Below, piece after piece: positions 34,254-60,066 of a stretch of DNA of 64,000 bases. Source of the stretch: a virus; the IMG/VR virus record IMGVR_UViG_3300023184_000081, positions 16,242-80,241 of that record; one strand, 5' to 3'. Each line of letters opens with the position of its first letter. Positions within the stretch are counted from its first letter, which is position 1. The notes under the pieces were generated by a model, which made no database searches, had not been told where the DNA came from, and saw only the letters and a program-made list of their open reading frames with translations. The translations under genes were made by a program, and so were the position numbers.

Positions 34254-34267
34254 ATTTGGAAAATAGT

Positions 34268-34342
34268 GTCCTGTTTGACTTCTGGTGAGGTCACCACCCT
34301 TTCACGGTGGCAAGAGGGGTTCGAATCCCCTACAGGACGCCA
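34268..34342 (+). tRNA. tRNA-Glu(TTC)
   Basis: Cloverleaf, anticodon loop CT-TTC-AC, encoded CCA. Confidence 0.92.
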
Positions 34343-34460
34343 TATTGAAGCGCATTATTGTCTATTTCGGCGTTCCTCCGATGGGTCAGAGTGTTTATAT
34401 AGACACCCTGATAAGGAAAACAGTATCCATTGACAAGATATTGGTAGTGCGTTTCAATAT
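34343..34460 (+). ncRNA. Inter-tRNA stem-closed RNA cassette 1
   Basis: (CCA)TATTGAAGCGCATT ... AGTGCGTTTCAATA(TGG) closing stem with nested inner helices. Confidence 0.6.
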
Positions 34461-34591
34461 GGTAACATGCAACAGCATGAGAGTAACGTGATACTGGCCA
34501 GTAAGCGTTCGGACATGCAATATCTCAAAGCGGAAAGTCATGAGTCCGTAGAGAAAAAGATTTCGGTTCGATTCCGAATTGCGTGTGACCA
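34461..34591 (+). ncRNA. tRNA-like stable RNA (T4 species-I-like)
   Basis: GGTAACA/TGTGACC terminal stem, T-arm TTCGG-TTCGATT-CCGAA, 3' CCA, no anticodon arm; 131 nt. Confidence 0.65.
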
Positions 34592-34597
34592 TATTAC

Positions 34598-34671
34598 GCG
34601 GGATTAGTTAAATGGTATAATTAGAGTTTTCCAAACTCCAGTCATCAGTTCGATTCTGATATTCCGCTCCA
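34598..34671 (+). tRNA. tRNA-Gly(TCC)
   Basis: Cloverleaf, loop TT-TCC-AA, CCA. Confidence 0.88.
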
Positions 34672-34679
34672 TTTGTTGT

Positions 34680-34753
34680 TGGGGATTAGTTAAATGGTAT
34701 AACCGCGGATTTTGATTCCGCTATCACAAGTTCGATTCTTGTATCCCCTGCCA
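34680..34753 (+). tRNA. tRNA-Gln(TTG)
   Basis: Cloverleaf, loop TT-TTG-AT, CCA. Confidence 0.9.
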
Positions 34754-34783
34754 GAAAATTTTATTTAACAGAAAGGAAATTGT

Positions 34784-34816
34784 ATGAAGCGAAAATCCAA
34801 AACACGCAAGACATAG
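34784..34816 (+). CDS. Minigene MKRKSKTRKT* inside the tRNA array
   Basis: Strong RBS AGAAAGGA; the G of the TAG stop is the first base of tRNA-Lys. Confidence 0.4.
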   Translation: MKRKSKTRKT

Positions 34817-34892
34817 GGAGTGTGGTGTAAAGGCTTGCACAACGGACTTTTAATCCGCTAAGAGTTAGGTTCGATTCCTACCACTCCCACCA
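34816..34892 (+). tRNA. tRNA-Lys(TTT)
   Basis: Cloverleaf, loop CT-TTT-AA, CCA. Confidence 0.9.
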
Positions 34893-34967
34893 TATGAAAA
34901 CACATTCTTTAAGGTCTTGGTCGTTACCAGCCTGGCAAAAACGACGACAGAGTGTGTTTCCATATAG
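34893..34967 (+). ncRNA. Inter-tRNA stem-closed RNA cassette 2
   Basis: (CCA)TATGAAAACACATTCT ... AGAGTGTGTTTCCATA; inner GTCGTT/AACGAC helix. Confidence 0.6.
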
Positions 34968-34975
34968 TAGAAAAA

Positions 34976-35067
34976 GGAGAGTAATGCAGCGGGGTTGGTC
35001 CTGCGACCAGCCTTGAAAACTGGGTTCTGAGAAATCGGATGGGGTTCGACTCCTCTGCTCTCCGCCA
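34976..35067 (+). tRNA. tRNA-Ser(TGA), 8/4 fold
   Basis: 8-bp acceptor GGAGAGTA/TGCTCTCC, 4-bp T-stem, long variable arm, loop CT-TGA-AA. Confidence 0.85.
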
Positions 35068-35073
35068 ATTTTT

Positions 35074-35149
35074 GACTCGTTAGCTCAATCGGAAGAGCAC
35101 ATGCCTGTCACGCATGAGGTAAGGGGATCGAAACCCCTACGGGTCGCCA
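35074..35149 (+). tRNA. tRNA-Asp(GTC)
   Basis: Cloverleaf, loop CT-GTC-AC, CCA. Confidence 0.9.
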
Positions 35150-35157
35150 AGAATTAC

Positions 35158-35251
35158 GGAGATTTGGCTGAGCATGGTTTAAGGCAGCGGATTGCTAATC
35201 CGTCGATCGAGGAAACTTGATCCATTGGTTCGAATCCAATAATCTCCGCCA
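35158..35251 (+). tRNA. tRNA-Ser(GCT)
   Basis: Long variable arm, loop TT-GCT-AA, CCA. Confidence 0.9.
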
Positions 35252-35265
35252 GAATTAAAAGTTTT

Positions 35266-35361
35266 GCTCCCCAGCACTCGGCGTGCGGCATGCCCTTATA
35301 AAGCGTGGAGACTGGTCAGATAGGCTGGAACGGGAAGGTTCAAAACCTTCGGGGAGTACCA
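35266..35361 (+). tRNA. Atypical tRNA, anticodon TAT (Ile?) with long variable region
   Basis: Acceptor GCTCCCC/GGGGAGT, tiny D-loop, loop CT-TAT-AA, ~25-nt extra arm, T-arm GAAGG-TTCAAAA-CCTTC, CCA. Confidence 0.65.
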
Positions 35362-35366
35362 AATTT

Positions 35367-35444
35367 GGTGAGGTGGCAGAGTGGTCAAATGCAAGAGCCT
35401 GCAAAACTCTAAAATCGTCGGTTCGAATCCGACCCTCACTTCCA
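35367..35444 (+). tRNA. tRNA-Cys(GCA)
   Basis: Loop CT-GCA-AA, U73, CCA. Confidence 0.9.
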
Positions 35445-35449
35445 AACTT

Positions 35450-35524
35450 GCCCTGTTAGTTCTAGTGGTAAAACGTCGGTTTTGTAATCCGAATTCGGGT
35501 GTTCGATTCACCCACGGGGCACCA
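35450..35524 (+). tRNA. tRNA-Thr(TGT)
   Basis: Loop TT-TGT-AA, CCA. Confidence 0.9.
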
Positions 35525-35531
35525 AAGAAAT

Positions 35532-35624
35532 GGAAGTATTGATGCTATGGCGTGTGCATCCCGAGACTGTAAATCTCGTCCCTCAGGGTAAACATTACTG
35601 GTTCGACTCCAGTTACTTCCACCA
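35532..35624 (+). tRNA. tRNA-Tyr(GTA)
   Basis: Loop CT-GTA-AA, long variable arm, CCA. Confidence 0.88.
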
Positions 35625-35631
35625 GATTTAT

Positions 35632-35706
35632 TCCTCGATAGCTCAGCGGTAGAGCAGTTGACTGTTAATCAATTGGTCCGTGGTTCGATCCCACGTCGAG
35701 GAGCCA
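35632..35706 (+). tRNA. tRNA-Asn(GTT)
   Basis: Canonical cloverleaf, loop CT-GTT-AA. Confidence 0.95.
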
Positions 35707-35715
35707 GTATCAAAA

Positions 35716-35791
35716 CGGTGTGTAGCTCAGCTGGTAGAGTGCGTGGTTTGGGACCATGAGGTCGGGAGTTCGAAACTCTCCACACCGACCA
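35716..35791 (+). tRNA. tRNA-Pro(TGG)
   Basis: Canonical cloverleaf, loop TT-TGG-GA. Confidence 0.93.
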
Positions 35792-35796
35792 GAATT

Positions 35797-35883
35797 GCAA
35801 GTGTGATGGAACAGGTATACATAAGAGACTTAAAATCTCTCGCTCGCAAGGGCATGCGGGTTCGATTCCCGCCACTTGCACCA
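35797..35883 (+). tRNA. tRNA-Leu(TAA)
   Basis: Loop CT-TAA-AA, long variable arm. Confidence 0.92.
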
Positions 35884-35899
35884 TAGTGATTCAGTATTT

Positions 35900-35975
35900 G
35901 GGGGTGTAGCTCAGTTGGGAGAGCGTATGCTTTGCAAGCATAATGTCGTCGGTTCGATCCCGTCCATCTCCACCA
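35900..35975 (+). tRNA. tRNA-Ala(TGC)
   Basis: G3:U70 pair, loop TT-TGC-AA. Confidence 0.93.
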
Positions 35976-35983
35976 GATTTAAT

Positions 35984-36057
35984 GCCTCGGTAGTTTAACG
36001 GTAAAACGCCATCCTTACACGGTGGATTCGGGAGTTCAACTCTCCAACGAGGTACCA
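35984..36057 (+). tRNA. tRNA-Val(TAC)
   Basis: Loop CT-TAC-AC; mismatches at the acceptor/T-stem junction. Confidence 0.82.
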
Positions 36058-36066
36058 AAAAGTTTT

Positions 36067-36143
36067 GCCCCGGTGACGGAATTGGCATACGTGTCGGTCT
36101 TAGAAGCCGAATTTTAGGAGTTCGAGTCTCCTCTGGGGCACCA
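36067..36143 (+). tRNA. tRNA-Leu(TAG) with short variable loop
   Basis: Loop CT-TAG-AA; only ~5 nt between the anticodon arm and the T-arm. Confidence 0.88.
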
Positions 36144-36305
36144 TAAGTAACTGCATTGGTAAGGAAAGACAATGTTCATAGACTCTCGAGGGAATATGTT
36201 CATACCTCCGCTGCAGCGGAGAAAAGGAGGATGGGCAAGCGATGATTTGGGGATTTTAGACATCTCCTCTAGCTGGATACCCCACCTGCCAGTGCAGTTT
36301 CTTAT
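36144..36305 (+). ncRNA. Inter-tRNA stem-closed RNA cassette 3
   Basis: (CCA)TAAGTAACTGCATTGGTA ... TGCCAGTGCAGTTTCTTA(TGG); inner hairpin CTCCGC-TGCA-GCGGAG. Confidence 0.6.
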
Positions 36306-36381
36306 GGTAATGTAGCATAGTGACTAATGCAGTTCCTTCATACGGAAAAGATCGTTGGTTTGAGTCCAACCATTACTACCA
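36306..36381 (+). tRNA. tRNA-Met/Ile2(CAT)
   Basis: Loop TT-CAT-AC, paired 1:72 (non-initiator), CCA. Confidence 0.85.
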
Positions 36382-36388
36382 AATTTTT

Positions 36389-36465
36389 GCGCCCATAGCT
36401 CAGTGGATTAGAGCCAACGGTTTCTACCCGTTAGGTCGGCAGTTCGAATCTGTCTGGGCGCACCA
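36389..36465 (+). tRNA. tRNA-Arg(TCT)
   Basis: Loop TT-TCT-AC, CCA. Confidence 0.92.
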
Positions 36466-36471
36466 GTATTT

Positions 36472-36547
36472 ACCATCTTAGCTCAGCGGTAGTAGCAGTG
36501 TGTTGATAACGCATTGGTCAGTGGTTCGATCCCACTAGATGGTACCA
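36472..36547 (+). tRNA. tRNA-Ile(GAT)
   Basis: Loop TT-GAT-AA, CCA. Confidence 0.92.
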
Positions 36548-36552
36548 AATTT

Positions 36553-36626
36553 CTCGGTGTAGTATAATGGCATTACGGCAGCCTCCAAATCTGCTTATGG
36601 GAGTTCGATTCTCTCCGCCGGGGCCA
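36553..36626 (+). tRNA. tRNA-Trp(CCA)
   Basis: Loop CT-CCA-AA, CCA. Confidence 0.88.
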
Positions 36627-36628
36627 AT

Positions 36629-36704
36629 ATCTCTATAACTCAGCGGACAGAGTTCTTCGGTCCTAACGAAGCGGTCGCAAGTTCGAATCTTGCTAGGGAT
36701 GCCA
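36629..36704 (+). tRNA. tRNA-Arg(CCT)
   Basis: Stem CTTCG/CGAAG, loop GT-CCT-AA. Confidence 0.85.
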
Positions 36705-36709
36705 GTTTT

Positions 36710-36787
36710 AGATGGAGAGCTAGTCTGGTGATTCAGCGCGTGCCTGAAGAGCATGAGAACTCAGTTCGATTCTGAGTCCATCTACCA
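36710..36787 (+). tRNA. tRNA-Phe(GAA)
   Basis: Loop CT-GAA-GA, CCA. Confidence 0.87.
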
Positions 36788-36796
36788 AAGAACAAT

Positions 36797-36870
36797 GGTG
36801 TTGTTAATGTAATGGTTGCATAACTGTCTGTGAAACAGTTAGAGAGGGTTCGATTCCCCACTTCACCCCA
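36797..36870 (+). tRNA. tRNA-His(GTG), imperfect stems
   Basis: Loop CT-GTG-AA, G-1:C73; two U:U mismatches in the acceptor and a short T-stem. Confidence 0.72.
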
Positions 36871-36878
36871 ATAAATAT

Positions 36879-36955
36879 CGGTCCTTAACTCAATTGGATA
36901 GAGTGCCAGTCTTCGAAACTGGAGGTTGGGAGTTCGAGTCTCTCAGGATCGGCCA
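36879..36955 (+). tRNA. tRNA-Arg(TCG)
   Basis: Loop CT-TCG-AA, CCA. Confidence 0.9.
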
Positions 36956-39467: not shown

Positions 39468-39683
39468 ATGAAGACGCCTGCATTTGGAACAAAAGGATAC
39501 ATAATTTTATGTGTAGACGGAAAGTATCGATTTAGAGTCTATACAGAAAAAGATTTTATTGATTACGATTTAGCTCACAGCGATTTATGCGTAGAGATAG
39601 TGGATAAAGATGCGACTTTTTATTCAGACGATCGCGGCGACAGATTGGATCACAACCCCTCAACATTAGGATATGACGAATGA
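39468..39683 (+). CDS. Hypothetical protein
   Basis: YRFRVY...DYDLAHSDL...LDHNPSTLG; ATG at 39468 preferred. Confidence 0.6.
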   Translation: MKTPAFGTKGYIILCVDGKYRFRVYTEKDFIDYDLAHSDLCVEIVDKDATFYSDDRGDRLDHNPSTLGYDE

Positions 39684-40186
39684 GTAATTATAAAACACAC
39701 GCAATAAACGAATTCCGTGCTGCAGGATGGATGGATCAGAATGGTAAATACCTTGATGAGATGCAAGAAATGATATGTAATCATGTTCTTGCTCTATTAG
39801 ATGTTTTTGCCGATGAAGGACATTCTGGCACCACTGCGCCATACACTATCGAATTGTTCTCTAAATTAGCAAAGTTTGATCCGATTGTTCCATTGACTGG
39901 TGAGGACTGGGAATGGAGTGAAGTGTCTGATGGCGACAATGGAAAAATGTATCAGAACAAACGATGCGGTGCTGTATTTAAAGACGCAAATCGACATGAT
40001 GGACAACCATATTATCTTGATGGCAAAGTGTTTTGGGAATGGTATAAGAGTGAAGATGGTGAAATGTCTAAGTCATATTTCACAAGTGCCGATTCTCAAG
40101 AGCCTATTGTATTTCCCTACACACCAAAGTCGGAGTATGTGTTTAGGGCAACAGAACAATTTCCAAATGAGGAAATTACAAAATGA
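39680..40186 (+). CDS. Conserved phage hypothetical protein
   Basis: FADEGHSGTTA...PLTGEDWEW...YQNKRC. Confidence 0.75.
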   Translation: MSNYKTHAINEFRAAGWMDQNGKYLDEMQEMICNHVLALLDVFADEGHSGTTAPYTIELFSKLAKFDPIVPLTGEDWEWSEVSDGDNGKMYQNKRCGAVFKDANRHDGQPYYLDGKVFWEWYKSEDGEMSKSYFTSADSQEPIVFPYTPKSEYVFRATEQFPNEEITK

Positions 40187-48308: not shown

Positions 48309-48563
48309 ATGACAAGAAACGAGATCTATGATTTGGCACGCAGTAATATTATTTCAGTAACGTTCACCAAGAAAGACGGCGAAACACGAACGATGAAATG
48401 CAGTCTCAAAGATGAATATATAGTTAGTGAAGAGAAAAAAGAATCGACTTCGGTTCGTAAACCTAATGACGAAGTTCTTGCTGTTTGGGATCTAGATAAG
48501 AGCGCATGGCGTTCGTTTCGTATTGAATCTGTGAAAGGTGTGGAAATATGGGAACAAAATTAA
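48309..48563 (+). CDS. WYL_2/SH3-like beta-barrel protein
   Basis: VTFTKKDGETRTMKCSL...VWDLDKSAWRSFR. Confidence 0.82.
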   Translation: MTRNEIYDLARSNIISVTFTKKDGETRTMKCSLKDEYIVSEEKKESTSVRKPNDEVLAVWDLDKSAWRSFRIESVKGVEIWEQN

Positions 48564-49555
48564 ATATTACTGGTATTATGGAAGAAGCTGAGAGTATCGA
48601 ACCTGCAGCAGATGGAACGTATACTAATCTAGGATCCGCTGGTGGAACTGAGATGATGATGGCTGGTCTTCGTGAGAGAGTATCATCAGAACTCCTAGAT
48701 CAATTCAATTTCATCTGCTCTCGATATCGTCCAGAAAATCTTAGCAAAGATAAAAAGAATATCCTCTGGCTGCACGACACTTGGGACGACCCCGAGAGTG
48801 AACATCTCTCTAAGAAAGAAAATCGTAAGAAATTTTCTAAACTTGTTTTCGTATCACACTATCAGCAAGCAACTTTCAACATGGGTCGTAATGTAGATTT
48901 TGCAGACGGTATTGTTATGCAGAATGCTATTGTTCCGATTCCAGAATTTGAAAAGACTAAGAAACATATCAATCTAATCTATCATACAACTCCACATCGC
49001 GGTCTGGAACTTCTGATTCCTGTATTCGAAAAGCTGTGTGAAGCGATGCCAGATGTCGATTTGAATCTAGATGTGTATTCTTCGTTCAACATCTACGGTT
49101 GGCCAGCACGTGACGAACCATACAAAGAATTGTTCGCACGTTGCACAAAACATCCGAACATAAATTATCACGGATATCAGCCAAACGATGTAGTTCGTAA
49201 AGCGTTGCAAGCCGCTCATATCTATGCATATCCGAATATCTGGCCGGAAACATCTTGCATTTCAGTGATTGAGGCGATGTCTGCCGGATGTTCTGTAGTT
49301 TGCCCAAATTTCGGAGCATTACCAGAAACCTGTGCAAATTTCGCAACAATGTATCCATTCATCGAAAACAATAATGCGCACGCAAATATGTTTGCCAGAG
49401 TTCTGATGATGGCTATCAGAAATCACTGGGATGAGAATAATCAGAATAAACTCAAATTTCAAAAACTGTATTTTGATAATTTCTATAATTGGGATGTGCG
49501 AGCATCGCAATGGGAATCACTTTTGAAGGGTATTTTGAGCCAAAATAAACCTTGA
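48548..49555 (+). CDS. GT-B (GT4-like) glycosyltransferase
   Basis: GGTE, TTPHRGL, YPNIWPETSCISVIEAMSAGC (ExxxxxxxE). Confidence 0.9.
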   Translation: MGTKLNITGIMEEAESIEPAADGTYTNLGSAGGTEMMMAGLRERVSSELLDQFNFICSRYRPENLSKDKKNILWLHDTWDDPESEHLSKKENRKKFSKLVFVSHYQQATFNMGRNVDFADGIVMQNAIVPIPEFEKTKKHINLIYHTTPHRGLELLIPVFEKLCEAMPDVDLNLDVYSSFNIYGWPARDEPYKELFARCTKHPNINYHGYQPNDVVRKALQAAHIYAYPNIWPETSCISVIEAMSAGCSVVCPNFGALPETCANFATMYPFIENNNAHANMFARVLMMAIRNHWDENNQNKLKFQKLYFDNFYNWDVRASQWESLLKGILSQNKP

Positions 49556-49597
49556 CAATTCTTTCGAATGAGCGTATAATAGTAATACAATATACAT

Positions 49598-50761
49598 ATG
49601 GATAAAGAATTGAAAACTGCTCAAATACGCGCTGCAACGACTACTATCAAGAGAATTATTCCTAATGGTGTGGAAGGTCAGTTGTATGGAACAGAAAAGA
49701 TTTGGGATTCTGAATCGAATCTTAAAGATGATCGAAATATACAACGGATTCACTGCTTCAATTTCTATAACAGTCAGTGTTCAGAAAAAGATGCTCGTGC
49801 ATATGTTGAAACATATATCAAGAATCTTAAGAAACAGCCTAAACAAATCGAAATGATTAATCATGTCAACGACCAAGAATTTTATGGTCCGTTGGCATGG
49901 CTGTGCCGTATGAATTCTGCTGGCTATGTTTTGAGTTCTGAAGAATTGCAGTATATCGAAGATAAATTCAAGAAGTTAATAATCTCTGGTAAGGAAAAAA
50001 ATGAAACACGTCGTGACGTTCAAAAGGTTGCGCCGATTGATATTCAAAAGAGAACTACAGAAGCGATTCATAAGACTGTAGCAGAAATTGATAATAAGGT
50101 CGACGAATTCATTCAATCTAAATTCAAGGATGCGTTTGATTCTTATGCTTTTCTGAAAGATAATTCAGTAAAACCGCTATATGCAAAACGCATCGCTGAG
50201 ATCTATCTGAGAGAGATTAAAGAGATCAAAGAAGTTATTCGTGGAGAAGATGAGCAGCTGAACGAAGCGTATTCCATTTACAAACCTAAAGAAATTAAGA
50301 AGCTGTATTCTTTCTATCAAAAGATTATTGATGATTCTAAATTGTGGGAAGATCATCTGAAGAAAAGCAAATCACCGCGTAAGAAGAAAGTCAAGAGTGC
50401 AGATCAGCTGATTCAACGATTGAAGTATATGAAAGGTGATGCAGAGTTCAAACTCACCAGCATTGAGCCTACGAAACTCATCGGTGCTTGTGAGGCATGG
50501 ATCTTCAATGCAAAGACTCGTCGCATAGATCATTATTTCTCAAATGATGTTGATGGTATCTCTATCAAAGGTTCAACATTGCAGAACATCAATGAGAAAA
50601 CTTCCATAGCGAAGAAGATTAGAAAGCCGTTAGAAATTTCCAAGAATATTGTTATGGCAACTTCTCGTGGTGCCACAAAATATTTCGATGCAATCAAGAC
50701 GAAGCCTATTCAAAGCACTGGACGTCTGAATGCGTTTTCAATAATTCTTCGGGTCGGATAG
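49598..50761 (+). CDS. Conserved T4-like hypothetical protein upstream of rnh
   Basis: LTSIEPTKLIGA..AWIFNAKTR...IKGSTL...GRLN; has its own sigma70 promoter at ~49552. Confidence 0.8.
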   Translation: MDKELKTAQIRAATTTIKRIIPNGVEGQLYGTEKIWDSESNLKDDRNIQRIHCFNFYNSQCSEKDARAYVETYIKNLKKQPKQIEMINHVNDQEFYGPLAWLCRMNSAGYVLSSEELQYIEDKFKKLIISGKEKNETRRDVQKVAPIDIQKRTTEAIHKTVAEIDNKVDEFIQSKFKDAFDSYAFLKDNSVKPLYAKRIAEIYLREIKEIKEVIRGEDEQLNEAYSIYKPKEIKKLYSFYQKIIDDSKLWEDHLKKSKSPRKKKVKSADQLIQRLKYMKGDAEFKLTSIEPTKLIGACEAWIFNAKTRRIDHYFSNDVDGISIKGSTLQNINEKTSIAKKIRKPLEISKNIVMATSRGATKYFDAIKTKPIQSTGRLNAFSIILRVG

Positions 50762-51741: not shown

Positions 51742-52161
51742 ATGATAAAAAGTCTTGCTGAAATGATTGATGAAATCGAGAAACAAAAAAATGCCGCATC
51801 TCAAACAAAACTTCTTAAGAAGTATGCCTCAGCTGCAATGAAAGCTGTTGTTGGCTATGCGATGGATCCTGGTGTTAAGTTCCTTCTTCCACCGTCCGAT
51901 CCGCCGTTTCGTCCAATGCCAGATGGATCAGATGCGCAAGGTCGTCTTATTGCAGATCACAGGAAATTTATTTACTTTGTAGATTCTCCAGATGGCAGAG
52001 GCATTAGCGCACTTAAACGCGAACAGATGTTCATTCAGATGTTAGAAACTCTAGATGTTCGTGATGCACAACTGTTGCTTCGGATTAAAAATAAAAAACT
52101 CACGATTAGAATGGACGCGGTAAAAGCTGCATTCCCGTCTCTAACTGCAAAGTGGAAATGA
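51742..52161 (+). CDS. Conserved T4-like hypothetical protein (DUF6433-like)
   Basis: FLLPPSDPPF...KREQMFIQMLETL...DAQLL. Confidence 0.8.
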   Translation: MIKSLAEMIDEIEKQKNAASQTKLLKKYASAAMKAVVGYAMDPGVKFLLPPSDPPFRPMPDGSDAQGRLIADHRKFIYFVDSPDGRGISALKREQMFIQMLETLDVRDAQLLLRIKNKKLTIRMDAVKAAFPSLTAKWK

Positions 52162-52757
52162 GCAATAATCCGGCTTTTATCATTGGTAATGGTGAAAGCC
52201 GTAGGAATTTTGATCTAAATGATATAAAGGGTGTTGCTCCTATTTACGGATGTAATGCTCTTTATAGAGATTTCTCTCCAGACTGGCTAGTAGCAGTCGA
52301 TGAGGGAGTCATTGATGAAATAAATTCTTCCAATTTTCCTAAAGAATCTACACTATTCCCTAGATCAAAAGCTGAAGAATACGAACCAGCAGATATGCAT
52401 CCAGGCAGAAACAGATATCCTAGAAACAATTCTGGTATGTATGCCATGCAGCGAGCAATAGAAAAAGATCATAATGTTTTACTGTGCCTAGGATTTGATT
52501 TTCTGATCAATGACAGCTATCTTTCTTGCACAAATTTGTTTGCTGGGACTAAAAATTACGGCGCAGAAACTCATGCGAATTTTGAAGATAATGCTGGACG
52601 GATTCATTATCTTGAATGGTTTGCAAGAAAGAATAAAGATGTTGTTTTTATTTTCGTTCTTGAAGATCTATTCCCAAAAGTTCCAATTGGCGCAAAAAAT
52701 ATTTTCACAATACCATACAGAACTTTAAAATTGAACATACATAGAGACAGTCAATAG
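52158..52757 (+). CDS. DUF115/MptE-like (sialyltransferase-like Rossmann) protein
   Basis: FIIGNGESR, YGCNALYR, AVD, NSG, CLGFDF. Confidence 0.7.
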   Translation: MSNNPAFIIGNGESRRNFDLNDIKGVAPIYGCNALYRDFSPDWLVAVDEGVIDEINSSNFPKESTLFPRSKAEEYEPADMHPGRNRYPRNNSGMYAMQRAIEKDHNVLLCLGFDFLINDSYLSCTNLFAGTKNYGAETHANFEDNAGRIHYLEWFARKNKDVVFIFVLEDLFPKVPIGAKNIFTIPYRTLKLNIHRDSQ

Positions 52758-52772
52758 CATTGGAATTATATT

Positions 52773-54134
52773 ATGACGAAGCAGATAGTATTAAGTGAAC
52801 AGATTGACTGTGAGCATTTGTTAGGTAAATTTCTAGATCATGACGCATACAATTATATTGTTAATGAAGATTGTGACGTGTATAAGCCATTGGGTCCTGG
52901 CGAAAGTCCTCACGAAAATAATTGTCTTTTGAAGTTTCGTAAGAACGTATTTCCTAAGAGCATTACAGACCCTGCATATATTGGATTGCGGGAGGGTGCT
53001 AGTCAATCTGATAACCGTGGTCTTGCTGCTGGAACTCATCGCGATGAATTTCAGATAATGCCAACCGAAACTGGACATGGTAAACGTCGATGGGTAACCA
53101 AACTAGAAAAAGCTATCATCAATTATTTTTTGGCTGGGTCACCAGTATCTGCGTCAGGTGGAGATCAGGTACCTGATATTTTGCGTGAGACATCTAATGA
53201 TCCATTAGAAGGACGAGGAGCCACTGGAGGCGGCAATATTAAAGGTGGATCTATTTGGATTGTAAAGAAAACCACAGAGTTTGATTTTACAGAATGGATG
53301 AATTCCACAAAAGAATTGTCTAGAGAAGATAGAAAGAAGTCTGCTATTGAAGTTCGCAAGTTGATATCAGATACATCTTATGGTAATTCTGTCTACTCTG
53401 GAACGGCTGGATATTTTGATCGTTATCCGCGTATTCCTTTTTGCAGAGAAACTGCTTGGAGTGCCGCAAATGCAGATCTATTCCAAAAAGGATATCCTCT
53501 ATTCGAAGCAGCATCTGATGTATTCAAAGACAATTTTCCGATCAGATGGAATGGACAGAATGACTCTGTTAAGAAACTGAAAGATCCTGGCTGGCGTATT
53601 GGTAATTCAGTTTACACGACCATAACGATCAATAAAGATTTCAGAACAGCTTGTCATAGAGATGCTGGAGATCTATGCGAAACAGAACGAATTAATCTTC
53701 CCGCAGGATTTAGTAATCTCACAGTATTGAGCGATGGAAAGAACTTTGATGGTATGTATCTATGCATGCCAGAGTATAAAGTTTGCGTAGATGTGAAACC
53801 GGGCGATCTATTGCTTATGGATGCTCATCAGATTCATGGCAACGTTCCTCTGATCTCATCAGATGAAGGATTTGAAAGAATTTCTGTTGTTATGTATTTC
53901 AGATCATCTATGTTAGATTGTTCTTCTGTTGAACAAGAAAATCTTCGTAGAAAATTTGTTTATGCAAGAAAAGATAATAACAGTCATGATCAATGGCACG
54001 AAGGTTGGAATGGAGTGTCAGCTGGAATGTGGGAAACTAAAGAATGGTCCGACTATCTAAGCAATAATGGATTTCCAGAAGAAGCGTCTAAAGTATCTAA
54101 GAGTGAAAATATAAGCGTTTTGGACTTCCTATGA
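52773..54134 (+). CDS. TET/JBP-family 2OG-Fe(II) dioxygenase
   Basis: GYFDRYPRIPFCR, YTTITIN.DFRTACHRDAGD (HxD), HQIHGN, ERISVVMYFR. Confidence 0.88.
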   Translation: MTKQIVLSEQIDCEHLLGKFLDHDAYNYIVNEDCDVYKPLGPGESPHENNCLLKFRKNVFPKSITDPAYIGLREGASQSDNRGLAAGTHRDEFQIMPTETGHGKRRWVTKLEKAIINYFLAGSPVSASGGDQVPDILRETSNDPLEGRGATGGGNIKGGSIWIVKKTTEFDFTEWMNSTKELSREDRKKSAIEVRKLISDTSYGNSVYSGTAGYFDRYPRIPFCRETAWSAANADLFQKGYPLFEAASDVFKDNFPIRWNGQNDSVKKLKDPGWRIGNSVYTTITINKDFRTACHRDAGDLCETERINLPAGFSNLTVLSDGKNFDGMYLCMPEYKVCVDVKPGDLLLMDAHQIHGNVPLISSDEGFERISVVMYFRSSMLDCSSVEQENLRRKFVYARKDNNSHDQWHEGWNGVSAGMWETKEWSDYLSNNGFPEEASKVSKSENISVLDFL

Positions 54135-54916
54135 AAATCTATGCTACAGCTACCATATGTGGAAAATGGAAGCTTCCATTCTATATTCCATTGGTTGATG
54201 AAGATAAGACATCAAAGCATGAACGATCATACATGCATTATGTTTCTCAGCATTCCGATCTTGTAGCTGCAAAATGTAATGCTACAGAATGGCTGCTTGG
54301 TGGGATTCTACCTATAGATTGCAAGCTAGTTGTTAGAGAATATTTTGGTGGTGCTGGAATAATGTCCACCATAATTCGAGGCATGTTTGAAGTGAACTCA
54401 CATTATATTGGAGAGCGTGATAAACAGTGCGTGATTCAATTAGAGAAAGCATTTCCACAAGCTATTTGTGAAGAAGCTGATGCTTTAGAATCCATGACTA
54501 GAAGTGAATATGCAGATATAGATATGTTGGATTTTCCATCGTCTAGTATTATTCACACAAAGCGCGCAGGTCAAAAATGGACAAATGGATTTGAAAAAGT
54601 CCTATCACGAAAACCAAATGCGATTATATGGACTGATACATCTGTAACATATCCTATATCAATTCATGGTTCTAGATACGAAACAGAAATTGGTGGACCG
54701 ATTACAACTCAGAGTGAATATCTGATGCGCTATTCGGAGTGGCTCTACAATACACATGGATATTCTATTTGCAGAGCAGCATATCGCGCGCGCAATGCGG
54801 TCTATCTTCTAGCTCAGCCAGGAGCATTTTACTTAGAAGAAAAACATTTTCCTATCATTGGAAATGAGAATGGATTTGTTATGGATAATGTTAAATCTAT
54901 ATTGGATTTTGTATGA
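54131..54916 (+). CDS. Unassigned class I SAM-binding (Rossmann) protein
   Basis: VVREYFGGAG (motif I), IGERD (II), EADA (III), DIDMLDFP (IV). Confidence 0.65.
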   Translation: MKIYATATICGKWKLPFYIPLVDEDKTSKHERSYMHYVSQHSDLVAAKCNATEWLLGGILPIDCKLVVREYFGGAGIMSTIIRGMFEVNSHYIGERDKQCVIQLEKAFPQAICEEADALESMTRSEYADIDMLDFPSSSIIHTKRAGQKWTNGFEKVLSRKPNAIIWTDTSVTYPISIHGSRYETEIGGPITTQSEYLMRYSEWLYNTHGYSICRAAYRARNAVYLLAQPGAFYLEEKHFPIIGNENGFVMDNVKSILDFV

Positions 54917-56064
54917 TCAATGTAGACTCAACGCATCCAATAGGAAATTGGTGTAATCTAAATAAAGTGGCTGAGGTTACAGATCTAAAGAAGGGAATGG
55001 ACTTTAGACTACCAAAATATCGTAGAGAAGTCTTCATGCGATTCTATGAGTTTCATCTACAGAATAGAAGTCATCCTGGTGGCGTATACTTTATGTTTCC
55101 ATGGCTGCAGAAGAAATATAATCTGGATAATGAACAGATGTTGTGGATGACATTCATCAATGGTATGAGTCAGCATATAGTTACAACATGGATGCTTTTT
55201 GAAAAGTTTCCAACATTCAGATCTGATCCAGATCTTATGCAGAAATATATCAGAGACAACTGGGCTCAGCTTGGTTGGGATATGGATAGACGTTATGTTA
55301 AGAATAAATTCGGAAAAGCTCTAGAATGCTATCAGAAGTTGATAGGTAAAAAAACTCAAATCGAATATTGGAATGGTCTGTGCAACACAACTGATGAGAA
55401 ACAGAACTTCAGAAATTGCTGGACAACTGTAATGACTGAATTTCATTACTTCGGTAGATTGTCATCATTCAGTTATCTAGAATATCAGAGGATCGTTGGA
55501 CTGAATATAGATTGTGATCGTCTGTTTCTAGAAGATATGAGTGGAAGTAAATCGCATAGAAATGGTCTAGCTGTAGTTCTTGGTCGTGATGATTTAGACT
55601 GGCATGATAAACTCAATCCGGATTTTCAGGGATATACACCAGATCATATATCTTGGCTGCAGTCACAAGGAGAAGCCCTTCTGATAGAAGCACAAGAAAG
55701 ATTCAAAGATAAAGAATACCTCAAGGATGTTTCCTATTTTACATTAGAGTCTACGCTTTGTTGCTACAAGAGCTGGCATAGAAAGAATAGACGATATGCT
55801 AATGTGTATATGGATATGTTCCATGATCGTATCAAAAAAGCTGAGGCTGCATCACAAGGCAATTATGATTTTTCATTATTTTGGGATGCACGAAAAGAGA
55901 ATCTTCCTGAGCATCTATTATTAGAATGTGTAGAATCTGATCCAGGATTATGTCCAGAAAAACAAAATCATTATCGCGATACTGGACAGGTCATTATGAT
56001 GGATAAGATGTGGTCGTGTTTTGAAAATAACTTTAATAAATCTGGTCTGAGGGAGTTTCTGTGA
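54913..56064 (+). CDS. Amino acid:DNA transferase (alpha-glutamyl/putrescinyl thymine pyrophosphorylase, clade 2-like)
   Basis: DMDRRYVK, YFGRLSSFSYLEY, GSKSHRNGL, LESTLCCYK. Confidence 0.83.
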   Translation: MINVDSTHPIGNWCNLNKVAEVTDLKKGMDFRLPKYRREVFMRFYEFHLQNRSHPGGVYFMFPWLQKKYNLDNEQMLWMTFINGMSQHIVTTWMLFEKFPTFRSDPDLMQKYIRDNWAQLGWDMDRRYVKNKFGKALECYQKLIGKKTQIEYWNGLCNTTDEKQNFRNCWTTVMTEFHYFGRLSSFSYLEYQRIVGLNIDCDRLFLEDMSGSKSHRNGLAVVLGRDDLDWHDKLNPDFQGYTPDHISWLQSQGEALLIEAQERFKDKEYLKDVSYFTLESTLCCYKSWHRKNRRYANVYMDMFHDRIKKAEAASQGNYDFSLFWDARKENLPEHLLLECVESDPGLCPEKQNHYRDTGQVIMMDKMWSCFENNFNKSGLREFL

Positions 56065-56606
56065 AAAAAATTATTGCTCTTGGTGGCGAACCTGCAACTG
56101 GTAAGACAACATTGATGTGGAGAATTATTGATAGCGCAACAGATTGGCAGAAGATTGAACCAAAGAAAACTCTTTCAGCAATTCGTTCAGAATCTCTCGA
56201 TCTAACCATACTGGGTAAGTATGATCGAGGCCTCGAATTCGCAGGAACAGATCGTCTATCAATGAGTGTTCAACCTGCAGCTACAGAGTTCATCAAAGAA
56301 GCCACAGGAAATATTCTATTTGAGGGAGATAGGTTATTCAATAGAAAATTCATCGACGCTATCATATCGTGCAATTGTCTATTCTCTCTAATCTATATTG
56401 AAGCGAGTCGCAATGAGCTTCAAAATCGACATATCGATCGAAAAGACACACAGACAGAAACGTTCCTTAAGAGTAGGCAAACTAAGTATAGCAATATCGT
56501 AAGGAGTTTAGATCTTATGGATATCATTCATACATTCAAGAATGATAATATGGATCAGCAGACAATTATTTACGATTTTATAAGAGCAAATATATTTAAT
56601 AAATAG
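56061..56606 (+). CDS. P-loop nucleotide kinase (putative 5-hmdU DNA kinase)
   Basis: GGEPATGKTT, LGKY...FAGTDRLSMSVQP, LFEGDRL. Confidence 0.85.
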   Translation: MKKIIALGGEPATGKTTLMWRIIDSATDWQKIEPKKTLSAIRSESLDLTILGKYDRGLEFAGTDRLSMSVQPAATEFIKEATGNILFEGDRLFNRKFIDAIISCNCLFSLIYIEASRNELQNRHIDRKDTQTETFLKSRQTKYSNIVRSLDLMDIIHTFKNDNMDQQTIIYDFIRANIFNK

Positions 56607-56610
56607 CATT

Positions 56611-56808
56611 ATGAAAACAGCTAAACTTCCAATTTATTCTTTAGATACAGTTCTTGTAGAAGGTTGGTTCATACGCTGCTCTATAATGAAGGGCAACATA
56701 CTTGTTGTTATGTTGAATTCAATAACTGAAGAATGTCGGATTGGCTTTTTTAAAACTGAAAAAAAAGCCAATCGTTTTGTGAATGATATAATATATGCTC
56801 TCGGATAA
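56611..56808 (+). CDS. Hypothetical protein
   Basis: Contiguous ORF. Confidence 0.6.
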   Translation: MKTAKLPIYSLDTVLVEGWFIRCSIMKGNILVVMLNSITEECRIGFFKTEKKANRFVNDIIYALG

Positions 56809-57211
56809 AATAAAATCTCTGCCCCATTCTGGAAGAACGCTACAAGATCATCTAAATGGAACTGCTGATATACTACGTTATTGGCTCTGTTCTGATGACG
56901 TTGTCAATGCAGGTCTGTATCACTCAGTCTACGGAACTTCAAGCTATAAGAATATAGCTACAACAAACAGAGATGAAGTTATCGCTCTGATCGGCGTATA
57001 TGCAGAATCTCTTGTGTATACATTCTGTAACACGAATCACAATAGAATGCTTCATTTTATTGAAAATCGAAATAAAGAATTGATTTTAGTAGAATGTGCT
57101 AATCTCATGGAACAGAAAAGCAGAAATTTTCAGATATTAGAAAAGGCAGTAGACTATGTTCCAAAATACATCGGAGACGATATAGGTTTCTACATAATGG
57201 ATAATCACTGA
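56795..57211 (+). CDS. DUF6817-like HD-domain protein
   Basis: HSGRTLQDHL.GT...AGLYHSVYGT...IG..AE.LVY.FC...AN.MEQ. Confidence 0.8.
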   Translation: MLSDKIKSLPHSGRTLQDHLNGTADILRYWLCSDDVVNAGLYHSVYGTSSYKNIATTNRDEVIALIGVYAESLVYTFCNTNHNRMLHFIENRNKELILVECANLMEQKSRNFQILEKAVDYVPKYIGDDIGFYIMDNH

Positions 57212-57221
57212 GGAATAGATC

Positions 57222-57398
57222 ATGACTACAGAAATAGATAAAATGATACAGAAATTGGAACTTGCAATGCATCATAATGCATATCTAACATTTGATGAGA
57301 TGGAAGAAATGCATACGTTTCTTCATAATCTCAAAGAAAATTCTCCTCGTCCTGCTATATTTTCGGAACAAGAACAATCTGAACTGTTTACAAAATGA
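57222..57398 (+). CDS. Small hypothetical protein (58 aa)
   Basis: RBS GAGG, ATGA overlap with the next gene. Confidence 0.55.
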   Translation: MTTEIDKMIQKLELAMHHNAYLTFDEMEEMHTFLHNLKENSPRPAIFSEQEQSELFTK

Positions 57399-58090
57399 GC
57401 AGAATCCATGTGAGAGGACAGATGGGTGTTCAGATTCTTCAAGTGGCAGTGGGACTGTCGAAGGAGTCTGATAAAGATACAGATGATTGTGTTATCTGTA
57501 TCAATAACGAAAAGACAGAAGTTCTTTCGTCCGAGAAATTATCTAATCAATTGCATCATGTGTTCGACGCTAAATGCAGAGTCATAGATATAGACTCCAA
57601 AGATAAGACTCCATATTGGGTCGAGGGTGCAGCAACTTCTATCTTTGAGAACAGAGATAATATATTCAAATATCTTGTTCCACGATTCGATATGATAGAA
57701 AAATTATTTCCTATTCAGCTTCCTGCAGTTCATATCAGAGGGAAAGATAAGAATGTAGCGTCTATCGAATCGTGTAGAAAACTTTTAGCCATGGCTGGAT
57801 CGGACGCTGTAATTTATACAGACGATAAAGAGAAAGCCAAAGAAGTATCACCAGAACATAAAGTAAGTCAAAACGAATTGGACATTGATGACTGGATTGA
57901 TATGTATAATTCCGCGATTATATACGCTGCGCCTTCTGCATTTATCATGAGCATGCTTTTGTTCAATCCTCATAAGACGATGGTCTTTATGAATGAAGAA
58001 ATGTGCGACGGGGAATATCCTGCATCGGCCGGAGATTTTCTATTCCTCAGAGAAGCTATGAAATTTTGTCCGAATGTGTCTATTGTCTAA
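57395..58090 (+). CDS. Fucosyltransferase-like (GT11/GT23) protein
   Basis: RGQMGVQILQ (cf. GxLGNQ), AVHIRGKD, IYTDD, PSAF. Confidence 0.65.
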   Translation: MSRIHVRGQMGVQILQVAVGLSKESDKDTDDCVICINNEKTEVLSSEKLSNQLHHVFDAKCRVIDIDSKDKTPYWVEGAATSIFENRDNIFKYLVPRFDMIEKLFPIQLPAVHIRGKDKNVASIESCRKLLAMAGSDAVIYTDDKEKAKEVSPEHKVSQNELDIDDWIDMYNSAIIYAAPSAFIMSMLLFNPHKTMVFMNEEMCDGEYPASAGDFLFLREAMKFCPNVSIV

Positions 58091-58091
58091 T

Positions 58092-58931
58092 ATGAAAATA
58101 AAAGATCTTGAGAGTATATTCAAAAGCTCTGCTAAATCTGCAGATAAGCTACAGGGATTCGTTCCTGATATGCATATCGATCGGGCGCAAAAGGCGCATG
58201 AAGCTCAACTGCAACGTAGAGAAAAACACGGACACAAAACTGAATATTCCAAAAAGTTCGATGAAGAAGGAATTGTAGTCATTCCGAATTTCATGAGCGA
58301 TATGACTGGATTTGTAGAGGAGATTGAAAAGTTTCCTATCGCTGAGAATAAGAATGAACATAATTTACTTTTCGGTGAACCAAGACCTTGGATTCAATCT
58401 CGAGATGATGATGGTTCTCGTCTATACAATATCGTCATGGACTGTCATGCTCTACACACTCTAGACCCACAATTCAAACAAAATACATTCGTTCAGCGTC
58501 TACAGAATAGCCCAGATAATAATGATGTGCAGAAAATTATGCACATGGATACGTTCTTTCCGACTGTTAAATTTTGGTTCTTTCCTCAAGATGTAACAAT
58601 AGATGATGGTCCATTCTGTTATGTGCCAAAATCAAATATTCTTACAGATAAAAGAAAAGAGTGGATGCGAAAACAGTGGGAAGATATTATTGACGGTAAG
58701 GTAGATCCACGAAGAACATATGGTCATGCAGAGGGGTCTCTACGTGTATTCGATGAAGAATTAATTGAGATGGGATTCGATCCAGAATGTAAAGTATATC
58801 CAGTCAAAGCGAATACATTAGTGATCGCTAACACGTTTGGATTCCACGCTCGCGGAGAGGTATCTAATACAGTGATCCGTCAAGCAATTCATGGGTCGAT
58901 CAGATTGTCGAAACCGTTCGAAATTTTCTGA
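58092..58931 (+). CDS. PhyH-family 2OG-Fe(II) dioxygenase
   Basis: FDEEGIVVIPNF, HMDTF (HxD), DGPFCYVPKS, GFHARG. Confidence 0.85.
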   Translation: MKIKDLESIFKSSAKSADKLQGFVPDMHIDRAQKAHEAQLQRREKHGHKTEYSKKFDEEGIVVIPNFMSDMTGFVEEIEKFPIAENKNEHNLLFGEPRPWIQSRDDDGSRLYNIVMDCHALHTLDPQFKQNTFVQRLQNSPDNNDVQKIMHMDTFFPTVKFWFFPQDVTIDDGPFCYVPKSNILTDKRKEWMRKQWEDIIDGKVDPRRTYGHAEGSLRVFDEELIEMGFDPECKVYPVKANTLVIANTFGFHARGEVSNTVIRQAIHGSIRLSKPFEIF

Positions 58932-59197
58932 TGTATGATTTTTTCATTACAGACTATAGAAGCCACAAATTACGGTTCATATTTGAATCTATTGCTTGGT
59001 TGATTTCTATCGGTTGTTGCATCGCAATGGCAGTAACAGTTCCGAATCCTCCGCTACTGATTCTCTATCCAATATGGATGACAGGCTGCGTAATCACAGC
59101 TGGATGCTCTTATTCTCGCGGATCGTTTTGGCTTTTCGCTAATTATATTATTCTAACACTGATAGATTCTGTTGGACTTATAAGGATGATGCTATGA
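58931..59197 (+). CDS. Small multi-TM membrane protein
   Basis: Three hydrophobic segments, TVPNPP. Confidence 0.7.
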   Translation: MYDFFITDYRSHKLRFIFESIAWLISIGCCIAMAVTVPNPPLLILYPIWMTGCVITAGCSYSRGSFWLFANYIILTLIDSVGLIRMML

Positions 59198-60066
59198 GTT
59201 TATTCAATTCTCGTTATCCGATCGTATGCGCTCCAATGAATCAGGTGAGTGACGCAAGATTAGCTGTGGCATGTAATAAAGCTGGAATCATTCCGAGTCT
59301 AGTAACAAATCATCAAATAGAAAAACAACTAAAAGAATATCGTGATTTTTGTCCGAATGGAGATATAATTTTATCTAGCAATTTGATGAATGCGACGATT
59401 ATCAATGGATTCGAAGGACTCATTGCGCTCTTAAAAGATTATAGAGTATCACATATACAGTTGTTGAAAATCTTAAACGATACTGAATTTAAAATGTTGG
59501 AAAGAATTCTAGATAACAATATTAAGGTAATATTTAAATCTCTAGAACCAATGCAATTAGCAGAGATGCAACCTTACTATGATGCAATAGATTTAAAAAG
59601 CCCAGACGCTGCATCCAGAGTGATACATACAGGTCAAACAACGATGGAAAGATTCTTAGAACAGAAAGCCACAAATCCGGATATTCCCATTATCGTGACT
59701 GGAGGGATATCCACATCTGCAGATATTAAAATGTATCTAGACGCAGGTGCAGAAGCAGTGGGATTAGGAACAATGTTCGCTCTCTCTAAAGAGTCTGCAA
59801 TACATCCTTATAAGAAAATGGAGATGATAAGAAAATCTTTCAGTGATGTTACATCTGTTAGAACTAACTTGAATTTTGGAAAGAATCGTATGAACGCGAT
59901 CGTATTTTCAGAGACGCCAGATACAGATGGAAATAATACAGAAGGATTAATACTGGGAAGAGATACAACGGATCGTGGATTACTCTTTGCAGGAAAAGCT
60001 CTAGATAACATCACTGCAATAGAATCCGTTCAAACAATTGTCGATAGACTCACGAAGGAGTTATAA
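59194..60066 (+). CDS. Nitronate monooxygenase/FabK-like FMN TIM barrel
   Basis: YPIVCAPMNQVSD, IPIIVTGGI, GAEAVGLGTMF..SKES. Confidence 0.82.
   Translation: MSLFNSRYPIVCAPMNQVSDARLAVACNKAGIIPSLVTNHQIEKQLKEYRDFCPNGDIILSSNLMNATIINGFEGLIALLKDYRVSHIQLLKILNDTEFKMLERILDNNIKVIFKSLEPMQLAEMQPYYDAIDLKSPDAASRVIHTGQTTMERFLEQKATNPDIPIIVTGGISTSADIKMYLDAGAEAVGLGTMFALSKESAIHPYKKMEMIRKSFSDVTSVRTNLNFGKNRMNAIVFSETPDTDGNNTEGLILGRDTTDRGLLFAGKALDNITAIESVQTIVDRLTKEL

Follow-up and report, generated by a model that had tools for sequence, protein, structure and literature searches.

A virus-borne methyltransferase family that may tailor amino acid adducts on thymine in phage DNA

Four overlapping genes in an uncultured phage

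This article concerns one gene of an uncultured virus and the family to which it belongs. The gene lies in a stretch of 64,000 nucleotides (nt) of IMG/VR record IMGVR_UViG_3300023184_000081 (positions 16,242 to 80,241 of that record), which we call the window and to which coordinates refer unless another locus is named. It occupies an open reading frame (ORF) at 54131-54916 on the + strand, confirmed as real, and encodes a protein of 261 residues, P0001, with the fold of a class I S-adenosylmethionine (SAM)-dependent methyltransferase and no family name. Its neighbors belong to a pathway that attaches amino acids to DNA. We argue below that P0001 may methylate the attached amino acid.

Immediately upstream is a TET/JBP-type 5-methylpyrimidine dioxygenase (453 residues, 52773-54134, + strand; Pfam PF12851, E 2.1e-15; PHROG 24024, E 1.5e-111), the probable source of 5-hydroxymethyluracil (5hmU) in DNA. 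Downstream come an amino-acid:DNA transferase (AADT, also called aGPT-Pplase; 383 residues, 54913-56064, + strand; PF18724, E 4.8e-18) and a P-loop kinase of the type paired with AADTs (181 residues, 56061-56606, + strand; Pfam P-loop Nucleotide Kinase3, PF18751, E 3.3e-10). TET, P0001, AADT and kinase form a four-gene operon in which start and stop codons overlap by 4 nt at all three junctions (ATGA, ATGA and GTGA), so that the P0001 gene overlaps its neighbor by 4 nt on either side, an arrangement that amounts to translational coupling. The combination that marks an AADT-type cassette for thymidine hypermodification, namely a 5hmU source, a 5-hydroxymethyldeoxyuridine (5-hmdU) DNA kinase and an AADT together, is present in neighboring genes (PF12851, PF18751 and PF18724). 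The phage itself is T4-like in its window gene set: family B DNA polymerase, UvsX-like RecA, DnaB-like helicase, ribonucleotide reductase, RNase H, ligase and dCMP deaminase. The source record, a viral contig of 80 kb, is about 43% complete.

A methyltransferase with its SAM site intact

The AlphaFold (AF2) model of P0001, made with 26 homologues, is a Rossmann-type class I methyltransferase with a mean predicted local distance difference test (pLDDT) of 88.6 and a predicted template modeling (pTM) score of 0.87. The chain stops after the methyltransferase domain. It has the features by which the class is recognized: a seven-stranded Rossmann-like fold, a glycine-rich motif I and an acidic residue ending strand 2. 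Foldseek returned at least 500 matches in the Protein Data Bank (PDB) at E <= 0.001, those listed being SAM-dependent transferases, and the VIA structure comparison (48,161 chains) gave SAM-dependent transferases in 49 of 50 rows, the remaining row being a ribosome-assemblosome chain. The best VIA match is Trm1 (Z 15.1, root-mean-square deviation 4.3, 215 residues aligned). It is followed at Z 13-14 by RlmKL, Trm5, an RsmD-like protein, TYW2, RlmO and TrmM, while CmoM, a carboxyl O-methyltransferase, scores 13.4. Taken from a model, these closely spaced values show the fold and a leaning toward nucleic-acid base methyltransferases, not the reaction. The ESM Atlas offered nothing more specific than viral hypothetical or generic class I methyltransferase clusters, with scores under 0.9.

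We counted conservation in 108 diverse representatives of the family, whose mean column identity is 18%. Motif I, E70-Y-F-G-G-A-G76 (54338-54358, + strand), is the SAM-binding loop; G74 and G76 are invariant, E70 is kept in 102/108 and F72 in 93/108, and the G-G-(A/V)-G core has no acidic residue. Motif II, I93-G-E95-R-D97 (54407-54421, + strand), forms the acidic end of strand 2, modeled at residues 88-95. Position 95 is D or E in all 108 and would, by analogy, be the ribose contact; D97 is D in 70/108. In motif III, E115-A-D117-A118 (54473-54484, + strand), position 117 is D or N in 101/108. Motif IV, D129-I-D-M-L-D134-F-P-S-S-S139 (54515-54547, + strand), is the catalytic-site loop. Here D134 is D or E in 108/108, position 135 is F, W or Y in 80/108 and position 139 is T or S in 103/108, giving a family consensus of D-(F/W/Y)-(P/N/G)-x-x-(T/S), which in P0001 itself reads D-F-P-S-S-S. 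A second family-wide acidic residue, D169 (D or E in 107/108), sits in T168-D169-T170 at the end of strand 5 (54632-54640, + strand). H91 (in the SAM site), Y183 and Y197 are also near-fixed, and close relatives share a single invariant cysteine, C100, in the helix after strand 2. That the whole SAM site is conserved speaks for a functional enzyme, and D134 and D169, which lie where strands 4 and 5 end, are from the alignment the best candidates for substrate contacts.

An earlier note on this DNA, made by a model from the letters alone, had picked out the motif series EYFGGAG, IGERD, EADA and DIDMLDFP (E70-G76, I93-D97, E115-A118 and D129-P136) and had proposed AlphaFold and Foldseek as a check for a Rossmann methyltransferase fold. 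That fold was found, and the motifs are conserved across the 108 representatives and so do not owe their presence to chance. The note was also right that the Pro-Cys motif of C5-cytosine methyltransferases is absent, motif IV reading D-F-P-S-S-S. It was less fortunate in likening motif IV to the DPPY of amino-methyltransferases, for the family consensus is not (D/N/S)PP(Y/F/W). The likeness it saw to aminopropyltransferases is weak too: the D-x4-D spacing is a generic strand-4 pattern of class I methyltransferases, and there is no match to a spermidine-synthase family. Aminopropyltransferases single out decarboxylated SAM through an acid in motif I, and P0001 has none there.

A widespread family hidden from Pfam

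P0001 has no match in Pfam (E <= 0.01), PHROG or NCBIfam, and neither its sequence nor an alignment of its relatives (A1) finds a match in a sequence search of the PDB. A wider profile (A2) draws only weak PDB matches to the SAM half, for example KsgA at E 8e-4 over the SAM-binding half. Yet P0001 is no orphan, as the earlier note had called it. A word-indexed search gave 25 relatives at 40-93% identity, and an exhaustive HMMER search gave at least 182 representative clusters (50% identity) at E <= 0.001, 79 of them at E <= 1e-10, nearly all from uncultured viruses. BFVD holds two members, from uncultured Caudovirales and labeled only 'AdoMet_MTases domain containing protein'. No longer or fused form of the family between 477 and 2000 residues was found, which is weak evidence against such forms.

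The family's profile links to named enzymes are weak, cover the SAM-binding half only and are limited to KsgA/RrnaAD, TRM5/TYW2 and EEF2KMT. TRM5/TYW2 (PF02475) and RrnaAD/KsgA (PF00398) are each matched weakly by 12/108 members (best E 5.7e-4 and 1.7e-4, respectively) and by P0001 itself not at all; PF02086 is touched by just 2/108 members, with a best E of 0.033. Neither P0001 nor any of the 108 members has a Pfam match to the Trm1 family (PF02005) or to a family of the spermidine-synthase type. What emerges is a family widespread in uncultured, mostly T4-like aquatic phages and invisible to Pfam-based annotation. It appears to be active, new and, in a search that left bacterial and archaeal genomes outside, restricted to viruses.

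The constant partner is the AADT

Alignment A1 fetched 66 viral loci, in which neighboring genes were called with custom hidden Markov models (HMMs); with loci of more distant subfamilies the pool came to 80. The order TET, methyltransferase, AADT, kinase holds in nearly all 66, with TET present in 60/66, AADT in 62/66 and the kinase in 56/66. Beyond these cassette genes, no family is common to more than 20 of the 66 loci, and the P0001 family is apparently the only conserved tailoring gene of its cassette. Over the pooled loci an AADT accompanies the methyltransferase in 72/80, adjacent (within 400 nt) in 67/80. Six of the eight misses are contig ends, and the other two have an AADT 17 kb away on the same record.

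The source of 5hmU is more variable. Across the 80 loci it is TET in 64 and a thymidylate-synthase-like protein in 8, never both. TET is missing in L058, L059 and 8 loci of the more distant subfamilies, where the methyltransferase is again beside the AADT; of these 10 TET-less loci, 8 carry a thymidylate-synthase homologue and 7 also the 5-hmdU DNA kinase helical domain and an HMUDK-like kinase. What stays constant beside the P0001 family is the AADT rather than TET. This counts against a role as activator of TET or supplier of 5-methylcytosine (5mC), and it argues that the modified base is thymine/5hmU. The thymidylate-synthase and HMUDK contexts likewise speak for a thymine over a cytosine route. 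The earlier note had placed the gene in a modification operon and tied its tailoring role to the transferred side chain. The overlapping genes and their TET, AADT and kinase neighbors bear out the first, and near-constant AADT adjacency fits the second; the check it had suggested, co-occurrence of homologues with modification genes, gave the 67/80 just described.

In 20 loci a ParB_N gene lies directly upstream of a shorter TET. Upstream of the window TET, the ORF at 52152-52757 has no HMM or Pfam match, and no ParB was detected there. In locus L073 (L073:3789-5786) a single frame of about 666 residues, with ParB upstream and the methyltransferase directly downstream, matches both TET and AADT profiles and may be a TET-AADT fusion.

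The comparison can also be run in reverse. Of the 80 viral loci with the AADTs most similar to that of the window, 25 carry the methyltransferase and 55 lack it. An unrelated protein of about 345 residues, without a Pfam match, takes the slot immediately upstream of the AADT in 30 of these 55. The model of this protein (pLDDT 93.1) is that of a pyridoxal phosphate (PLP) fold-type-II enzyme resembling D-cysteine desulfhydrase or ACC deaminase, and an alignment (A8: L092:1772-2893, L087:2289-3413 and 24 other loci) shows one lysine, in the motif N-G-S-K-L-R-Q, to be invariant. Its probable role is to make or process the amino acid for transfer. The possibility that this protein is a diverged methyltransferase was rejected (hhalign probability 0.8%), and simple mutual exclusivity of the two was dropped, since 4 loci hold both. 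The position beside the AADT is a slot for accessory enzymes, and the methyltransferase is one occupant.

A tail shared with the DNA polymerase

The family B DNA polymerase of the window (833 residues, 2750-5251, + strand; PF00136 and PF03104), which served as our comparator, ends in ...ASLENFF. Three of the four cassette proteins end alike: TET in ...ISVLDFL, P0001 in ...KSILDFV and the AADT in ...SGLREFL. The P0001 tail, S-I-L-D-F-V (54896-54913, + strand), is a candidate sliding-clamp docking peptide and has low pLDDT at residues 255-261. We scored C termini for the pattern L-x(1,2)-[FY]-hydrophobic, taking loci with and without ParB separately. In non-ParB loci it ends 23/39 methyltransferases, 26/39 TETs and 13/41 AADTs, against 0/37 kinases and 7/420 of all other genes. 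In ParB loci it is found on none of these (methyltransferase 0/18, TET 0/20, AADT 0/18, kinase 0/15, other genes 0/153). The PLP enzyme of the slot has it in 0/26, all loci counted together. Carriers among the other genes include a clamp-loader family and a family of about 830 residues with the size and tail of the window polymerase.

Tail and ParB gene exclude each other across L001-L066; L022, for example, has ParB at L022:6238-6864, and L011 has tails on TET, methyltransferase and AADT. ParB is itself a DNA clamp and may replace the gp45 clamp as the tether to DNA.

Just upstream of the window the phage has a gene for a gp45-like clamp (L083:1159-1818). When the complex of this clamp with residues 230-261 of P0001 was predicted, the score was 0.39 against 0.02 for the best control, with the runs agreeing in at least 69% of contacts, a partner pLDDT of at least 41 and a verdict of 'weak support'. 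In calibration the mark was reached by 51/78 solved complexes and 2/108 mismatched pairs; scores of 0.60 or under took in only 5/78 solved complexes, and all 4 passing mismatches (of 180). A similar clamp-peptide complex from a T4-like phage has been solved, and for that reason the pass may draw on the predictor's memory.

The tails suggest that in T4-like phages P0001, TET and AADT bind the sliding clamp and act on DNA, P0001 probably being held there by its C terminus. We regard this as good positive evidence, not proof, that the methyltransferase acts on DNA alongside TET and AADT. A polymerase-like tail shared by these enzymes, and only where ParB is absent, also suggests how they reach newly made DNA.

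Elsewhere in the genome

The flanks of the cassette (48548-50761 and 56795-60066) encode a GT1 glycosyltransferase, a 387-residue PHROG 11903 protein, a DUF6817 protein, a weak PhyH-like dioxygenase and an NMO/IMPDH-like flavoenzyme. Of these, the glycosyltransferase and the PHROG 11903 protein, which form the pair upstream, are seen again in 4-6 related loci (L001-L007), the downstream set only in L002. These genes may provide further steps such as glycosylation or oxidation, or they may be unrelated. About 65 kb from the TET cassette, upstream of the window in the same genome, is an intact canonical C5-cytosine DNA methyltransferase (446 residues; G000:C1:4089-5213, locus L067; PF00145, E 4e-38).

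Right after the DNA polymerase, a protein of 272 residues (5632-6450) has weak matches of the asparagine-synthase/QueC type (PP-loop ATPase), which may be a sign of one more function in nucleotide or base modification. A homologue of the Thoeris inhibitor Tad3 (39680-40186; PF25185, E 3.4e-34) lies beside the dCMP deaminase and DNA ligase. An array of 23 tRNA genes on the + strand (34267-36955) explains a GC-rich stretch and the many short minus-strand ORFs found there.

What the methyltransferase might do

In the published route, 5-hmdU in DNA is phosphorylated and an AADT displaces the phosphate by glycine, through its nitrogen, or serine, through its oxygen; in known AADT pathways the carboxylate is afterward taken off or masked by PLP, radical-SAM, flavin or acetyl enzymes (PMC8989533). 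Contigs with TET_JBP, kinase and AADT are predicted to modify thymine (PMC8989533), and phage T-dioxygenases have been linked to kinases and AADTs (PMC13229309). Carried over to the window, and in the order we infer, TET would oxidize thymine of finished DNA to 5hmU, the kinase would phosphorylate it and the AADT would swap the phosphate for an amino acid. P0001 would then use SAM to methylate the amino acid adduct on the DNA. We propose methylation of the adduct because the only conserved accessory is a SAM enzyme.

As to the atom, the likeliest target would be the amino nitrogen of the adduct, by analogy with the conversion of 5-aminomethyluridine (nm5U) to 5-methylaminomethyluridine (mnm5U) in tRNA. 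We favor nitrogen because the active-site residues are conserved acids and the neighboring folds are N-methyltransferases, two of which, Trm1 and KsgA, dimethylate. In amine methylation, acids are usual where strands 4 and 5 end; for a carboxylate they would be odd, unless a metal bridged both. A COMT-like metal site made of D134 and D169 is only an idea, suggested by positional analogy. The second option would be a methyl ester on the carboxylate of the adduct, which would also remove its negative charge. Put as a whole, that P0001 methylates an amino acid adduct on thymine in DNA, most likely on nitrogen, is a proposal in which our belief and our doubt are evenly matched.

Several observations weigh against it. 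Motif IV departs from the canonical amino-methyltransferase type. The fold matches, coming from a model, do not separate N-, O- and C-methylation, their Z values lying within about 2 units with CmoM (13.4) among them. Megablast and tblastn against 50,697 deposited phage records found no match to P0001, and so no cultured phage with the gene. Nor is the tail universal: the kinase, which also acts on DNA, lacks it (0/37), as do the methyltransferases of ParB loci (0/18), and the modeled clamp complex gave weak support only. Finally, the canonical C5-cytosine methyltransferase of the same genome may serve a route through 5mC and 5-hydroxymethylcytosine (5hmC) in this phage.

Could P0001 instead methylate an exocyclic nitrogen of an ordinary DNA base, making N6-methyladenine (m6A), N4-methylcytosine (m4C) or N2-methylguanine (m2G), so as to protect or mark the phage DNA independently of the side chain and be merely co-inherited with the cassette? 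The closest structures do methylate exocyclic or ring nitrogens of bases (Trm1, RsmD, TrmM, RlmKL and M.BseCI), motif I, E-x-F-G-G-x-G, is like that of DNA and RNA amino-methyltransferases, and a clamp-like tail would suit any enzyme that acts on DNA. We nevertheless think it unlikely. Co-inheritance of that kind sits poorly with AADT adjacency in 67/80 loci, across two supply routes for 5hmU and deep divergence, and with the absence of any member from the deposited phage records; at 261 residues P0001 has no separate target-recognition domain, and its motif IV is not (D/N/S)PP(Y/F/W). Another possibility moves the reaction off DNA altogether. P0001 might methylate a free amino acid or amine for the AADT, or use SAM as an aminocarboxypropyl or aminoalkyl donor, which is how the earlier note's suggestion that it might supply the amine would work. 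The PLP enzyme that fills the same slot in 30/55 loci is a small-molecule amino-acid enzyme, TYW2 and the nocardicin 3-amino-3-carboxypropyl transferase are among the fold matches (Z 11.8-13.8), and 12/108 distant members weakly match the TRM5/TYW2 domain. Against this, P0001 has the polymerase-like tail of TET and AADT and the PLP enzyme does not; the 4 loci with both enzymes mean that they are not simple alternatives; and the spermidine-synthase family is missing from the matches. This too we hold to be improbable. A bolder variant keeps the enzyme on DNA and dispenses with methyl transfer: P0001 would use SAM as an alkyl or amino acid donor (of a 3-amino-3-carboxypropyl group, for instance, as TYW2 does), and the base would be made by clamp-tethered enzymes behind the fork. 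It is a long shot, but if true a thymine side chain would be built partly from SAM, to give a base without precedent in RNA or DNA.

Two other readings are weaker still. P0001 could be a noncatalytic partner with a methyltransferase fold whose part is to bind or flip the base on behalf of AADT or TET, a scaffold or activator as ParB is for some phage T-dioxygenases. The genes are coupled in translation, a protein activator can be required by published phage T-dioxygenases (PMC13229309) and some clade C1 dioxygenases are inactive alone (PMC8256090). A pseudoenzyme, though, would not need the SAM-binding motifs kept in 108 representatives, the gene pairs with AADT in TET-less clusters, and 20 loci hold ParB as well, all of which makes this very unlikely. 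Least credible is an unusual C5-cytosine methyltransferase making 5mC for TET. The gene adjoins TET/JBP, and phage TETs of other clades do pair with C5-methyltransferases (PMC8256090), but those published TET-associated enzymes keep the catalytic cysteine (PMC8256090). P0001 has no Pro-Cys at motif IV, the 108 members have no conserved cysteine there or after strand 5, and PF00145 is matched neither by P0001 (E <= 0.01) nor by any of the 108 (E <= 0.1). Family members also occur without TET beside a thymidylate-synthase homologue, and the genome's canonical enzyme sits elsewhere. We consider this reading largely refuted.

Relation to known systems

Methylation of the adduct, the reading we prefer, adds to a pathway that others have described. 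Metavirome clusters of TET_JBP, 5-hmdU DNA kinase and AADT (Lee et al. 2021, PMC8989533) have the same three enzymes in the same order and with the same predicted logic, and the ParB-dependent and ParB-independent phage T-dioxygenase neighborhoods of O'Toole et al. (2026, PMC13229309) again have the same enzymes and order; our 20 loci with ParB_N and a short TET match their ParB-dependent subclass. The searched parts of PMC8989533, PMC8256090 and PMC13229309 name no methyltransferase between TET and AADT. Lee et al. annotated by Pfam (PMC8989533), which misses P0001; here it is a core fourth gene. The cassette type is already published, then, and what is new is an enzyme family added to a known pathway, which defines a compact four-gene set.

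Trm1, the tRNA (guanine26-N2)-dimethyltransferase (PDB 3AXS/3AXT, 2DUL), is the nearest structure, and its likeness to P0001 includes the N-terminal extension. In its motif IV an Asp is closely followed by an aromatic residue, as in P0001. Identity is only 7-11%, however, the C-terminal RNA-binding domain of Trm1 is absent from P0001, and the substrate of P0001 is probably DNA; judged from the model, P0001 may work like Trm1 without being a member of its family. In chemistry there are parallels in MnmC2/MnmM, which convert nm5U to mnm5U, and CmoM/Trm9, which make carboxyl methyl esters, all class I methyltransferases acting on an amino acid-derived side chain at uracil C5. One known product of AADTs, N-alpha-glycinyl-thymidine, is the deoxy analogue of 5-carboxymethylaminomethyluridine (cmnm5U), and the MnmC parallel has been discussed (PMC8989533). 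No kinship at the sequence level was detected between P0001 and these enzymes, whose substrate is tRNA where that of P0001 is presumably DNA. They offer a working analogy, not membership.

The P0001 family most likely predicts a DNA base not yet described, a methylated amino acid-thymine adduct. Such new bases bear on how phages resist restriction and CRISPR, and they are of interest as tools for labeling DNA with enzymes. Among the characterized AADT systems, phage M6 has a PLP decarboxylase and a radical-SAM isomerase, ViI a PLP enzyme, and PaMx11 a flavin lyase and an acetyltransferase (PMC8989533). These enzymes occupy an accessory position beside the AADT, as P0001 does, and differ from it in fold and cofactor. 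Every characterized route through kinase and AADT ends in a different tailoring enzyme, and each leads to a different base.

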